Origin: a virus
UHGV virus genome: UHGV-1967114
DNA length: 35,477 bases
Strand: one strand, 5' to 3'
The notes beneath the pieces are model-generated. The model was not told where the DNA came from. It made no database searches and worked only from the letters and a program-made list of their open reading frames with translations. A program made the position numbers and the translations under genes. Below, piece by piece: positions 1 through 35,381 of this stretch (the stretch's first letter is position 1; every line of letters begins with the position of its first letter).

Positions 1-263
1 CTGAAGCGTTGACCCAGGGCGAAACAGTTGCTGAAGCGATGGAAGCGGCAAAAGATGCTTTACTGACCGCATTTGATTTTTATTTTGAAGATAATGAGCT
101 AATCCCGTTGCCTTCGCCATTAACTAACAACGATCACTTTATTGAAGTACCTTTGAGCGTCGCCTCTAAAGTATTGCTGTTAAATGCTTTTTTACAGTCA
201 GAAATCACTCAGCAAGAGTTAGCCAGGCGAATTGGCAACCCGAATGTAGTCAACCCAAAATAA
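1..263 (+). CDS. hicB: HicB-family antitoxin, 5' portion of a gene interrupted by prophage insertion (truncated by window start); ORF now ends in 8 phage-derived codons (NPNVVNPK) then stop
   Basis: In-frame translation ...TQGETVAEAMEAAKDALLTAFDFYFEDNELIPLPSP...SEITQQELARRIG matches my recollection of E. coli HicB N-domain plus first half of an XRE-type HTH; second half of the HTH is found at 35268..35381 on the same strand. Confidence 0.75.
   Translation, partial: EALTQGETVAEAMEAAKDALLTAFDFYFEDNELIPLPSPLTNNDHFIEVPLSVASKVLLLNAFLQSEITQQELARRIGNPNVVNPK
231..246. other. attL junction: host ATTGGC - AA - phage CCCGAATG; putative 2-bp crossover AA at 237-238
   Basis: hicB reading frame diverges immediately after codon GGC-AA; compare attR at 35261..35276 where hicB frame resumes after AA. 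Confidence 0.55.
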
Positions 264-434
264 CTAAAAATTTTGCAATAAAAAGCCCCATCACAAGGAC
301 AGGGCTATAGAATCAATGAATTAGAAGAATTCTATAGCAACTGAGTCGCAATTAACACCATAAGAAATGAACTTAGGAACTAACTAGTAATATTCAGGCG
401 TTTAACTATCTCTGATTGTATTATGTCGCCTCTA

Positions 435-1229
435 TCATTTTTTCTCTACACAAGAATATTTCCATTCGATTTCCTTTCCGGTACGGTTGTCAACATAAAT
501 ATGATGATAGTCCAGTGTTCTTACATCATCAACCATCTTATCACCGGAATATGTTTTTCCGTGTTGTGCGTATAACTCTACACCAGTTTTTGTAGTTTTT
601 GACATGAATCCATCAGCGTCAATATTCATTTCCACTACAACTGGGGGGTGCATCGTTCCAGAAATTAGAAGTTTTGCCTTGTCTTTGTTTTTATCGATTA
701 CAATTTTTGTGTTTTCTTTCACTATATCACGATCTTCTACACTCAGTCCGTCAATTGTGGTTATCTTAACTACTTTCGGACAAATATATACGAAGTTGCT
801 ATTTGGGGACTTTTCCAGAACAACTTGTTTCTCTTTGGTTTTTAGAGTTTCTACTGCCTTCGGTTGTTCTTCTTCAACCTTCGCAGAAGTCTCTGAATCG
901 CTTTCTGACGCGGTTTCTTCTTTAGATAATACATCCATCAAGTTTTGGATTTGAGCGTTGTATACAGCCTCCAGTGGCTGAATCTGCCCGATATTGATCA
1001 TTGTATCACGAACAGTTTTATTCCAGTTGCGTTGCTCTTGTTTAAGCGACGGATCAATCTTAACAGCCTTAACATATACTTCATGAAGTTTAGAGTCCAG
1101 TGCGGAGATTGACTCATTAGCACAAATAAACTTCTCTGATTTGGTAGTAGCTTTAGTGCAATCGAAGGATGCAGCATTAGCACCGAATGCAGTAGCAGAA
1201 AGAACGATAGCAGCGATAATGTTTTTCAT
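435..1229 (-). CDS. Secreted protein with N-terminal LprI/DUF1311-like domain (signal peptide MKNIIAAIVLSATAFGANA) and C-terminal Cys-containing domain; probable moron
   Basis: Signal peptide; motif C-x(n)-EKFIC...LD..L...Y....QR.W...RD typical of DUF1311; RBS AGAGG upstream of ATG on minus strand. Confidence 0.6.
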   Translation of the reverse strand: MKNIIAAIVLSATAFGANAASFDCTKATTKSEKFICANESISALDSKLHEVYVKAVKIDPSLKQEQRNWNKTVRDTMINIGQIQPLEAVYNAQIQNLMDVLSKEETASESDSETSAKVEEEQPKAVETLKTKEKQVVLEKSPNSNFVYICPKVVKITTIDGLSVEDRDIVKENTKIVIDKNKDKAKLLISGTMHPPVVVEMNIDADGFMSKTTKTGVELYAQHGKTYSGDKMVDDVRTLDYHHIYVDNRTGKEIEWKYSCVEKK

Positions 1230-1587
1230 TTTATACCTCTTTTGGTATGGACTGACTTTTAGATGCTTACTTTATTGATTTTTGATATTTTTTCAATTAT
1301 TGGGATGAGATTTAGTAATTAAATTAAGAAATTAATGCTTGACAAATTAAAAAGGTACTGTTCCACGGATGAAATAAAGGGAGTTTTCGGCACCCCGGTA
1401 TTTGATGTGCGTGTGAGATTCTAAAACGTGATCACTTCACTTATGGCGCGGTCGCTACGCGACTATTAACCCACTTCCTAACCCTTACCATTACTGGATC
1501 TTTCCCTTCGTTAGAATGCGATTTAGGCGCTTAGATTGTGCGTAAAACCAATAAATAAAATTACGCAAATTTAATGGAGGATAACCA

Positions 1588-2142
1588 ATGAAAGAAGAAT
1601 TAACCCTTACAGAAATTTCCCGTTTATATGGCTATACATTGAATGGTGGCGGTAAGCGATGGTTAGAAAGGGGATTGCCATTTAACACCAATACCCGCCG
1701 CGTGCCAGCCAAAGAAGGAACAGAATGGGTCTTGAAAAATATTATCAACCCGCTTAAACAAACTTCTATCAAAGAACAAATCGACGTAGAGAAATTACGC
1801 CGTGAACGTGCTTTGGCAGATGCAGCCGAACGAGAGAACCAGGAAAAAATGAATCTCCTGATTCCTGTCGGTTATGTAGAACAGGAACTAGCGGAATACT
1901 GCGGGAAAGTGAAACAGACTATTTTGCAGATTTGTACGATCGATGCCCTAGAAATTTTAGAATCCGCCACTGATCAGAAAACATTGAAGAATAAGCTAAG
2001 GGAGATCATCGAACGTCGTTTAAATGAAGTAGGGGACTTGTTCGAAAATGCAGATTTGGGAGAAGACGAGGAAGAAGAATTAGCATTAATGGATGAACCG
2101 GAACAAGAACCAGAAGAAGACGATGAATTTGATGTGTCTTAA
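1588..2142 (+). CDS. Nu1-like DNA-packaging protein / terminase small subunit candidate (N-terminal HTH, GGGK motif, EKLRRE, acidic C-terminus)
   Basis: Pattern resembles lambda Nu1 N-terminus (HTH...GGGK...EKLRRE); strong RBS GGAGG 9 nt upstream; note it is not adjacent to the large subunit. Confidence 0.5.
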   Translation: MKEELTLTEISRLYGYTLNGGGKRWLERGLPFNTNTRRVPAKEGTEWVLKNIINPLKQTSIKEQIDVEKLRRERALADAAERENQEKMNLLIPVGYVEQELAEYCGKVKQTILQICTIDALEILESATDQKTLKNKLREIIERRLNEVGDLFENADLGEDEEEELALMDEPEQEPEEDDEFDVS

Positions 2143-2242
2143 AAATTAGATACTAAATATATACGTGAAGGATGTTGAGCTGGTCAACGTCTACGGGGGA
2201 GAACATCCCCCGCTAACCTTTTTCTTATTTGAGGATTTACCT

Positions 2243-2344
2243 ATGGTTGAATTTTTGATTTATCTGGCTGTAGGATTAACTATCGTATATTCACTTGCTC
2301 ACATTGGCATTTCTACTGTGTGTAACGCTTTCAAGTATCATTAA
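2243..2344 (+). CDS. Small hydrophobic membrane peptide (33 aa)
   Basis: ATG preceded by GAGGA RBS; single predicted TM helix; below ORF-track size cutoff. Confidence 0.3.
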   Translation: MVEFLIYLAVGLTIVYSLAHIGISTVCNAFKYH

Positions 2345-33784: not shown

Positions 33785-34204
33785 TTAAAGAATTTCACGG
33801 CAGCTAATCAGGGTATAAGATGTATCACCTTTTTTAACATCAAATATAGGAGCGCCATCTACAGAATGCAGATATTTGATGTAAGACTTACCATCTTCGG
33901 AACCATAATATTCTTCTTTCTCGTTCTTATCTTCTTTCAGTTTCGGGCTTTTGATTGTTTTATCAAATACCGGATCGTTGAAAGCAAATTGACTATTATC
34001 ATCATTCACTCGAACCTTTACACCGATAAAACCACGGTATTTGCCAGACGGCGCATGATAATAACGGTCGCCATCACTCAGGTAGCGTGTATCATCTCCT
34101 TTATATTCGAAGTAGGAATTGCACACATAATAGGTATAGGTATTAGCATTTGCAGCACCAACCAAACCCAGAGCAAGAACGATACCAGCGATAATCTTTT
34201 TCAT
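33785..34204 (-). CDS. Secreted protein (signal peptide ...LVGAANA), two Cys; possibly related to C-terminal domain of 435..1229
   Basis: Signal peptide; Y-V-C near N-terminus and I-S-C near C-terminus as in the 264-aa protein (FVYIC...KYSC). Confidence 0.6.
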   Translation of the reverse strand: MKKIIAGIVLALGLVGAANANTYTYYVCNSYFEYKGDDTRYLSDGDRYYHAPSGKYRGFIGVKVRVNDDNSQFAFNDPVFDKTIKSPKLKEDKNEKEEYYGSEDGKSYIKYLHSVDGAPIFDVKKGDTSYTLISCREIL

Positions 34205-34515
34205 AGTAGAATTTCCTCTTGTTGTTTGAATTACGATATATTTATATCGTTAAAAATTGATGCTAATTACCAGACCAAACACAACCGCACCAATCAAATC
34301 AATCCAGTTAATACACAATCCGCTATATTCTTTCTTGAATGTCTTAGATGAAATGCCATCATGAAATTGTTTCATTGCTCACCCCATACTAACGACAAGA
34401 TAAGAAAGACTAATAATAGTTGTGAGACTACCTCCCACGAATGAGATAAAAGCTAACATGTTTGATTCTCCATTTAAAAAGCGGTGGGAATTACACCCAC
34501 CAAATTAGAAATTAA

Positions 34516-34953
34516 TTAAGCGCGAACGATGGTCAGAGTATCCAGCAAACCTTTTTCGTATAATTCAAAACACGTTTTATATTGCTCAATCTGGAAACCA
34601 TAGCGGGTGATCTTATTCAGTAGAACAATCACGGTATTCTCATCTAGGTATTGTCCTTGCTTACCAATTACATATGACTCGCGGGATAGTCTCAGCTTAC
34701 GGAAACCTTTAACACCTAATTCCTTAGCCACCGCTTTAATCTCGTTAATCTCACCTTCTGCGGCTACATATTCAGCGTCGATAATATCAGTTGATGATCT
34801 CAGTGCTACCAGAACTAAAGCCATTGCTTCTTCTTCGGTACGAGCAACACCAGCTTTCTCGAAAGTCATCTCACCAAATTTACGAATCATGATATTGAAC
34901 ATTGTCTGTATTCCGTTTAAATCGGCGGGAATAGTACCCGCCAAATTAGACAT
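34516..34953 (-). CDS. Hypothetical protein (145 aa), second gene of attR-proximal two-gene operon
   Basis: Start overlaps upstream stop (TAATG); no recognizable motif. Confidence 0.55.
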   Translation of the reverse strand: MSNLAGTIPADLNGIQTMFNIMIRKFGEMTFEKAGVARTEEEAMALVLVALRSSTDIIDAEYVAAEGEINEIKAVAKELGVKGFRKLRLSRESYVIGKQGQYLDENTVIVLLNKITRYGFQIEQYKTCFELYEKGLLDTLTIVRA

Positions 34954-35249
34954 TACTTCTTGCTGATAAACTCTTTAGCGATAAAGTTGATTACTTCTTT
35001 CAGCTTCTTGTCTGTATCGATGCACGCTGGTAATTCTTCTTTAATATCCTGCGGCAGATACACATTCCCTTTAAAGTGGAGGAAACCATCATTACCAATC
35101 ATGTAGGAGAACATCCATTCACAATCGTTATCCGCTTCCCAGAACGCCACGGTCTCATCGTCAATCAAGGTAATGTCCATGTTGCGACGTGCTGCGTAGT
35201 TGATGATTGCTTTACCGATGTTCATTGTTGTACCCCCTCGTGTTATCAT
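34953..35249 (-). CDS. Hypothetical protein (98 aa), first gene of attR-proximal two-gene operon
   Basis: ORF begins 18 nt inside attR; RBS GGGGGT; no recognizable motif. Confidence 0.55.
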   Translation of the reverse strand: MITRGGTTMNIGKAIINYAARRNMDITLIDDETVAFWEADNDCEWMFSYMIGNDGFLHFKGNVYLPQDIKEELPACIDTDKKLKEVINFIAKEFISKK

Positions 35250-35260
35250 GGGTACATGAT

Positions 35261-35276
35261 ATTAGGGAAACCTAAA
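35261..35276. other. attR junction: phage ATTAGGG - AA - host ACCTAAA; putative 2-bp crossover AA at 35268-35269
   Basis: hicB reading frame (KPKQEITR...) resumes exactly after the AA. Confidence 0.55.
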
Positions 35277-35381
35277 CAGGAGATTACTCGCCTATTTAAC
35301 TTGCACCATGCGACAAAAATCGACGCCGTCCAGCTTGCGGCAAAGGCGCTTGGCAAAGAGTTATCGCTGGTGATGGTTTAA
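35268..35381 (+). pseudogene. hicB: hicB 3' remnant (second half of XRE-type HTH and C-terminus ...LSLVMV), separated from its 5' part by the prophage
   Basis: KPKQEITRLFNLHHATKIDAVQLAAKALGKELSLVMV continues the motif interrupted at 236; upstream part of ORF 35076..35381 is antisense phage sequence. Confidence 0.7.

Follow-up and report, generated by a model that had tools for sequence, protein, structure and literature searches.

A 35-kb serine-integrase prophage within the Escherichia coli antitoxin gene hicB

The 35,477-nucleotide stretch of DNA listed as UHGV virus genome UHGV-1967114 (hereafter the window) contains a prophage of ~35.0 kb (239..35267) that lies inside hicB, the antitoxin gene of the chromosomal hicAB toxin-antitoxin (TA) system of Escherichia coli. 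The prophage carries a complete siphovirus-like structural module, a lysis gene and an integrase that belongs to the large serine recombinases (LSRs), and syntenic prophages of ~35 kb are annotated in PI7, DEC5A and UTME-9. We consider it very probable that a temperate siphovirus-like phage from an enterobacterial lineage not yet described entered hicB by means of its own LSR, that the fit of the site and not the role of the antitoxin decided the target, and that the effect on hicAB is largely harmless. Gene-splitting LSR prophages are well known as a kind, and hicB is new among their targets.

The two ends of the window are the two halves of the chromosomal E. coli hicB (3..236 and 35270..35381). 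The 5' fragment (1..236, forward strand; codons ~24-101, as placed by translation and by alignment to hicB of strain 118UI and of seven lysogens) reads EALTQGE...ITQQELARRIG, continues into the prophage with the eight residues NPNVVNPK and ends at a stop codon at 261-263 (translation of 3..263). The 3' fragment (35270..35381, same strand) extends from the third base of the Lys102 codon to Val138 and the stop codon, reads KPKQEITRLFN...LVMV, and encodes the recognition helix and the dimerising C-terminal strand. A preliminary description, made from the letters of the window alone, had proposed that 1..238 and 35268..35381 join into one gene. This join is off by two bases and shifts the frame, because the AA dinucleotide of the crossover is counted twice. 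When the right host fragment starts at 35270, or equivalently when the left host fragment stops at 236, the joined flanks (1..238 + 35270..35384) translate as a single open frame, and the Pfam domain HTH_3 covers the junction. With this correction, the earlier placement of a prophage (239..35267) between two pieces of hicB that together form a continuous open reading frame (ORF) was borne out.

Database comparisons led to the same identification of the terminal ORFs. An end-to-end alignment (98.4%) places the 446 nt of the joined flanks on the uninterrupted hicB-ydcR locus of strain 118UI, whose intact HicB aligns with the HicB of PDB 6HPB/6HPC/6U0I over all 138 residues with 3 differences. 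The joined hicB-ydcR sequence is also unbroken in at least 4217 of 5426 complete E. coli genomes, a collection that does not include the window's own host, so that the uninterrupted locus expected in related genomes does exist. The locus order is yncJ-hicA-hicB-ydcR, as in K-12, and the beginning of ydcR, the usual downstream neighbour of hicB, is found at 35460..35477 (forward strand; coordinates carried over from the PI7 annotation). Both the match to an experimentally characterised HicB and this gene context identify the split gene as hicB.

The break in hicB comes after residue Gly101 of 138, in the helix-turn-helix (HTH) at the turn from helix 2 to the recognition helix, and the crossover AA makes up bases 1-2 of the Lys102 codon. 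The truncated HicB ORF stops 8 codons past Gly101, leaving residues 1-101 followed by the eight phage-encoded residues, and this product lacks an intact C-terminal HTH domain for DNA binding and dimerisation. The recognition helix is placed 35 kb away, without a start codon. The split HTH, the truncated HicB and the orphan 3' fragment had all been read correctly in the preliminary description. The 3' fragment comes without its own start codon or promoter, and no sigma-70-like site was found upstream of it on the same strand. Genome annotations treat both pieces as pseudogenes, the 5' piece as 'missing C-terminus' in PI7 and others and the 3' piece as 'missing N-terminus'. We also considered a 101-aa ORF at 35076..35381, in which phage sequence is fused to the HicB C-terminus, and rejected it as a gene, since it is antisense to a phage gene and since the phage gene adjacent to the right attachment site varies among other lysogens.

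The element is present at the identical hicB position in 35 of the 5426 complete E. coli genomes, and the lysogens closest to the window are PI7 and 24AR0357. The same junction in 35 complete genomes indicates that it is neither an assembly artefact nor a chance resemblance. The lysogens carry at least two distinct hicB alleles, which indicates that integration occurred more than once. IMG/VR has prophage contigs of 35.0-35.6 kb in which the integrase is identical; these contigs are mostly trimmed at gene boundaries, and 3 of 27 retain a usable junction. DNA similarity to 50,697 deposited phage records was confined to a tail-fibre region like that of RB49-like myoviruses, and the lack of a close relative among these records marks the phage lineage as undescribed.

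The integrase (32042..33721, reverse strand; 559 aa from the annotated ATG) contains the three Pfam domains Resolvase, Recombinase and Zn_ribbon_recom, each above its own gathering score. The catalytic resolvase-type domain (PF00239) was detected with E = 2e-14 and 54 bits against a cut-off of 23, PF07508 (Recombinase) with 32 bits against 21, and PF13408 (Zn_ribbon_recom) with 38 bits against 25. The motif YSYIRFSS with S12/S13 and the zinc-ribbon residues C314, C317, C338 and C348 are invariant across eight relatives. The left attachment site, attL (~198..280; crossover AA at 237..238), matches the bacterial site attB through ...GGC-AA, up to and including the AA, and then diverges. In the right attachment site, attR (~35228..35310; crossover AA at 35268..35269), agreement with attB begins at AA-ACC..., and attL and attR overlap on attB by AA exactly. 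The phage site attP reconstructed from these arms (...GGGTACATGATATTAGGG-AA-CCCGAATGTAGTCAACCC...) is an imperfect palindrome with 23 of 40 positions symmetric by raw count, including GGG-AA-CCC and the outer GTTAT..TGGGT. At the sequence level, the three domains, the 2-bp crossover without duplication or loss and the dyad symmetry of attP are those expected of an LSR, and the 2-bp AA overlap is a defining mark of serine integration.

Insertion by another mechanism, such as a tyrosine integrase or Mu-like transposition, or an origin of the junction as an assembly chimera, is exceedingly improbable in view of the same data. There is no target-site duplication or long shared core at the hicB insertion, where the overlap is 2 bp, and no other integrase, tyrosine integrase or transposase was found among the window ORFs scanned. 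A chimera would have to have arisen identically in 35 independently assembled complete genomes.

In the proposed pathway, the phage's own LSR would cut attP (...ATGATATTAGGG-AA-CCCGAATGTAGTC...) and the attB in hicB (...GAATTGGC-AA-ACCTAAACAGG...) at the central AA, and the ends of attP and attB would be rejoined conservatively with no base gained or lost, so that excision would restore hicB exactly. We also observed that the attP base beside the core varies among the hicB-site phages, with AGGG-AA, AGGC-AA and TGGC-AA in the attR arms of hicB lysogens. This variation at one hicB site indicates that the innermost arm positions tolerate change.

Sister elements of the prophage are found in other genes. 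In E. coli 14EC007, PEC41 and UTME-9, they split ycdX; the match of these ycdX elements to the window begins at 237, and their attP is identical at 80 of 82 positions with the same AA core. They therefore share the attP arms and the AA crossover with the window phage and have ~92% identical integrases, yet differ in the target gene, and the UTME-9 element in ycdX has the same 35-kb genome organisation as the window phage. The relatives in Salmonella enterica are also in ycdX with the same AA junction, while those in E. fergusonii adjoin a truncated codB, where the junction hints at an AA core. The integrases at these Salmonella and E. fergusonii loci are 69-74% identical to that of the window, and the loci keep the integrase-proximal gene order. 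Integrase homologues are 84-100% identical in E. coli and Shigella, ~68-75% in Salmonella, 72% in E. fergusonii and 60% in Edwardsiella. Judging from these loci, the phage family habitually inserts within genes, with targets that are unrelated to each other.

The hicB and ycdX attB sites share GGnAAnCC..AAA, and hicB was probably picked since this short sequence fits the integrase variant, not for its role as an antitoxin. The window integrase and a ycdX-type integrase are 92% identical, with 44 differences, 31 of which fall in residues 191-360, corresponding to the recombinase and zinc-ribbon domains. In LSRs, these are the domains that read the attachment sites. Wherever the junction is readable in E. 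coli, the type of residues 191-360 matches the target (8/8 for hicB and 3/3 for ycdX), and this match holds on two different catalytic-domain backgrounds. In the double lysogen UTME-9, the hicB copy has the hicB-type domains and the ycdX copy has the ycdX-type domains. The two UTME-9 prophages have near-identical structural genes and many identical structural proteins together with different integrases. The Salmonella ycdX integrases carry ycdX-type residues at many of the differing positions, which makes the hicB-type integrase look derived, and ycdX is the likely ancestral target of the phage family. From this pattern we infer that these particular integrase substitutions may have caused the switch of target.

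To see what the insertion would mean for hicAB, we considered what is known of HicB from reviews of the primary work. The N-domain of HicB covers the active site of HicA and neutralises it, and the C-terminal HTH together with the following beta-strand provides dimerisation and operator binding (PMC11594946 sections 2.2-2.3). Of the two hicAB promoters, P1 drives hicA and hicB, and P2, which is repressed by HicB, gives HicB only (PMC8138530 section 3.6; PMC10865869 Fig. 1 legend; PMC11594946 section 3). Natural HicB proteins of 63-103 aa that have no DNA-binding domain exist (PMC10865869, classes 1-2). The truncated HicB would keep the HicA-neutralising N-domain and lose the recognition helix and the dimerising C-terminal strand, and it should no longer repress P2. 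Because P2 transcripts give HicB and not HicA, derepression should raise the level of the truncated antitoxin while HicA stays neutralised, and this retained neutralisation would leave the insertion largely harmless. From the literature and the sequence together, lost P2 repression with more truncated antitoxin and a still neutralised HicA is the most likely outcome. The loss of autoregulation, which the preliminary description had also suggested, is a reasonable literature-based prediction, but it would bring more truncated antitoxin and not more toxin.

In agreement with this predicted outcome, the hicA gene is intact in 27 of the 35 hicB lysogens. The other eight, including the closest lysogens PI7, 24AR0357 and EC05, have a 22-bp frameshifting deletion in hicA, as would be expected if the splitting of hicB freed HicA and lysogeny were viable only where hicA is inactive through a compensatory loss of the toxin. 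However, 809 of the 5426 complete E. coli genomes (15%) have the same deletion, and very few of these are lysogens, as counted with a 50-nt junction query of which each half is shorter than the 28-nt seed. The deletion is neither enriched nor depleted in lysogens compared with the rest (8/35 vs 801/5391; Fisher's exact p = 0.23). On these allele counts we rejected compensatory hicA loss as very improbable. The deletion inactivates hicA in 15% of the genomes, indicating that a considerable part of the species already lacks a working chromosomal HicA toxin. It lies between TGCG microhomologies, upstream of the window. Other elements can disrupt hicB as well, since NZ_OW849377.1 has an IS1 within hicB on a background with the hicA deletion. 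The HicAB of a paper on LF82 is a phage-encoded pair and not this locus.

The location of the break within an antitoxin raises another explanation, in which the insertion is adaptive: it would rewire or disarm HicAB as a possible phage-defence module, or it would act as a reversible switch to a constitutive antitoxin ('active lysogeny'). In this explanation, integration would make HicB constitutive and devoid of its DNA-binding domain, excision would revert it, and the hicB integrase would be a retargeted ycdX-specific enzyme selected for that effect. The break falls exactly between the two HTH helices and spares the neutralising domain, and a serine integration can be undone precisely. On bioinformatic grounds, a role in anti-phage defence has been proposed for HicA domains (PMC10865869), and the apparently derived state of the hicB-targeting integrase would mean that a new target was acquired and then kept. 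However, the sister phages that share this attP interrupt ycdX, more distant relatives adjoin a truncated codB, neither of these being a TA gene, and only 35 of the 5426 genomes are lysogens at hicB. Further, ~15% of E. coli genomes have a dead hicA, with no enrichment or depletion among lysogens. The searched literature contains no mention of hicB or ycdX as a phage attachment site, of the att sequences, or of a defence phenotype tied to such an insertion. We regard both the general adaptive explanation and selection of the integrase for a constitutive HicB as quite unlikely. For active lysogeny in particular, the data show a potential for a precise restoration of hicB. The comparative evidence leans against a special role of the TA target, such as the stabilised lysogen or the altered hicA expression that the preliminary description had suggested, and gives no sign of a strong phenotype of the lysogens, suggesting that the TA angle is probably incidental.

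Several points weigh against the reading we prefer, namely entry of a temperate phage into hicB by site fit with a largely harmless outcome. The half HTH domain of the truncated HicB might misfold and be degraded, and the tolerance of an intact hicA in lysogens could equally reflect low hicA expression. The counts for the co-segregation of integrase type and target (8/8 and 3/3) are small, and the sequences are interrelated. A search of IMG/VR and JGI metagenome contigs for attP gave no exact match, with no excised or circular form found, and homology did not reveal a recombination directionality factor, a repressor or a replication gene in the scanned window ORFs. The lack of an attP junction in these viral and metagenome collections and of recognisable repressor or replication genes would also fit a fixed, defective remnant that no longer excises and leaves hicB a permanently dead pseudogene, and PGAP flags a frameshift in the PI7 terminase. 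On the other hand, the large structural, lysis and integrase ORFs of the window are all open and full-length, including the gpA-like large terminase (8186..10099, forward strand; 637 aa; phrog_15, E = 6e-135), which matches an intact gene of 635 aa in the DEC5A annotation. The different hicB alleles, lineages and accessory modules of the lysogens point to recent independent integrations, and UTME-9 carries two sister copies at two sites. A defective remnant thus seems unlikely to us.

Gene-splitting LSR elements are best known from Firmicutes, including SPbeta in spsM (SprA) and skin in sigK (SpoIVCA) of Bacillus subtilis, and the phi10403S / A118-like phages in comK of Listeria, which are associated with 'active lysogeny'. 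As in these systems, the window contains an LSR element inside a protein-coding gene, with short, non-identical attachment sites, crossover at a central dinucleotide and a predicted precise restoration of the gene on excision. Unlike those elements, the hicB prophage resides in E. coli and interrupts an antitoxin gene, and it is not known to have a developmental or infection-linked excision programme. Among deposited phage genomes, the closest LSRs are the YbcK-like LSRs of lambdoid E. coli phages (e.g. Perceval) and gp53 of the Burkholderia phage Bcep176, which have the same three-domain architecture. They are at best ~30% identical to the window integrase, over ~82% of the length, and come from phages with unrelated backbones. 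In the PDB, the window integrase has no relative beyond the catalytic domain. On the side of the host gene, the window ends together encode the HicB of the E. coli K-12 type II TA system HicAB (PDB 6HPB). In contrast to K-12 HicB, the protein is cut after Gly101, with the recognition helix and the dimerising strand encoded 35 kb from the rest.

With these observations, hicB, ycdX and probably codB join the known prophage attachment sites of Enterobacteriaceae, and the gene-splitting serine-integrase phages are extended to E. coli, Shigella and Salmonella, where they form an uncharacterised temperate phage group. The most useful by-product is the specificity pair of the hicB and ycdX integrases, which are ~92% identical and share attP while using a different attB, and which provide a compact natural test case for LSR target specificity. 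How this specificity is encoded is of practical interest for genome engineering. In addition, the lysogens are natural hicB(1-101) mutants and can be used to study neutralisation by the N-domain and the lost autoregulation.

The remaining features of the prophage are described from the left end. A terminator-like hairpin with a T-run (284..306, reverse strand; 9-pair stem, TTTTTATT tail) is located 3' of a gene for an LprI-family (lysozyme-inhibitor-like) secreted protein (435..1229, reverse strand; Pfam PF07007 and PI7 annotation). By its position, the hairpin should stop leftward phage transcription before it enters the hicB 5' fragment in antisense, and the LprI-family gene beside attL is a probable moron. 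A small terminase-like protein follows (1588..2142, forward strand; phrog_57, E = 6e-11). An ORF-less region of 1.3 kb (4100-5450) contains a repeat array with at least six copies of TTTTTGCCCCTGAAA at a spacing of ~21-22 nt (4645..4783) and an inverted copy of the repeat at 4827-4840; DEC5A and UTME-9 have a comparable gap free of annotated genes. The array resembles iterons or operators and may mark the origin or the immunity region of the phage. Neither Rfam nor tRNA scans of the window, the repeat-array region included, gave a hit. Downstream of this region, a Rha/Ant-family regulator is encoded at 6285..7127 (forward strand; Pfam PF09669 and PHROGs anti-repressor families).

The structural genes are all on the forward strand. 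They encode, after the large terminase, a portal protein (10676..12187; phrog_21), a protease-major capsid fusion protein (12233..14233; phrog_617, phrog_4523 and phrog_80), a side tail fibre (16042..19644; phrog_158 and phrog_1121 for the fibre region) and, downstream of it, a tail tube protein (19702..20175; PHROGs). These are followed by a tail fibre adhesin (20350..20856; phrog_1121), a tape measure protein (21597..24029; phrog_13674) and a tail tip / host-specificity protein (25760..29506; annotated as 'phage tail tip' in PI7 and DEC5A), and the Pfam and PHROGs scans placed a distal tail protein in the gene set as well. The endolysin belongs to the M15 D-Ala-D-Ala carboxypeptidase family (31160..31513, forward strand; phrog_894, E = 3e-45). 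Between the endolysin and the integrase gene, the window phage has a 90-aa ORF (31780..32052) as the sole ORF. The relatives in Salmonella and E. fergusonii have genes for a UvsW-like helicase and a CapR-like protein in this interval, and a UvsY-like gene occurs there only in Salmonella. A strong terminator-like hairpin (33741..33770, reverse strand; 11-pair stem, GTTTTTGTTT tail) is found ~10 nt upstream of the integrase start, and this location just before the start codon suggests that integrase expression needs read-through or an unrecognised promoter. Three small phage genes lie on the reverse strand between the integrase and attR (33785..34204, 34516..34953 and 34953..35225; phrog_6147 and phrog_14908, of unknown function, and PI7 annotation).

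The side tail fibre is the region that the window shares with deposited phages. At the DNA level, it is ~82% identical to the gene for the distal long tail fibre of the RB49/JSE type, annotated as gene 37 in the T4-like Krischvirus phages RB49 and JSE, and an adhesin-family ORF is next to it. The window thereby appears to hold a receptor-binding module of a virulent myovirus within a temperate siphovirus-like genome. The Krischvirus matches begin at window position ~860 (query position 621), inside the LprI-like gene, and the counterpart stretch in the Krischvirus phages contains hypothetical genes and a holin adjoining the tail fibre gene.

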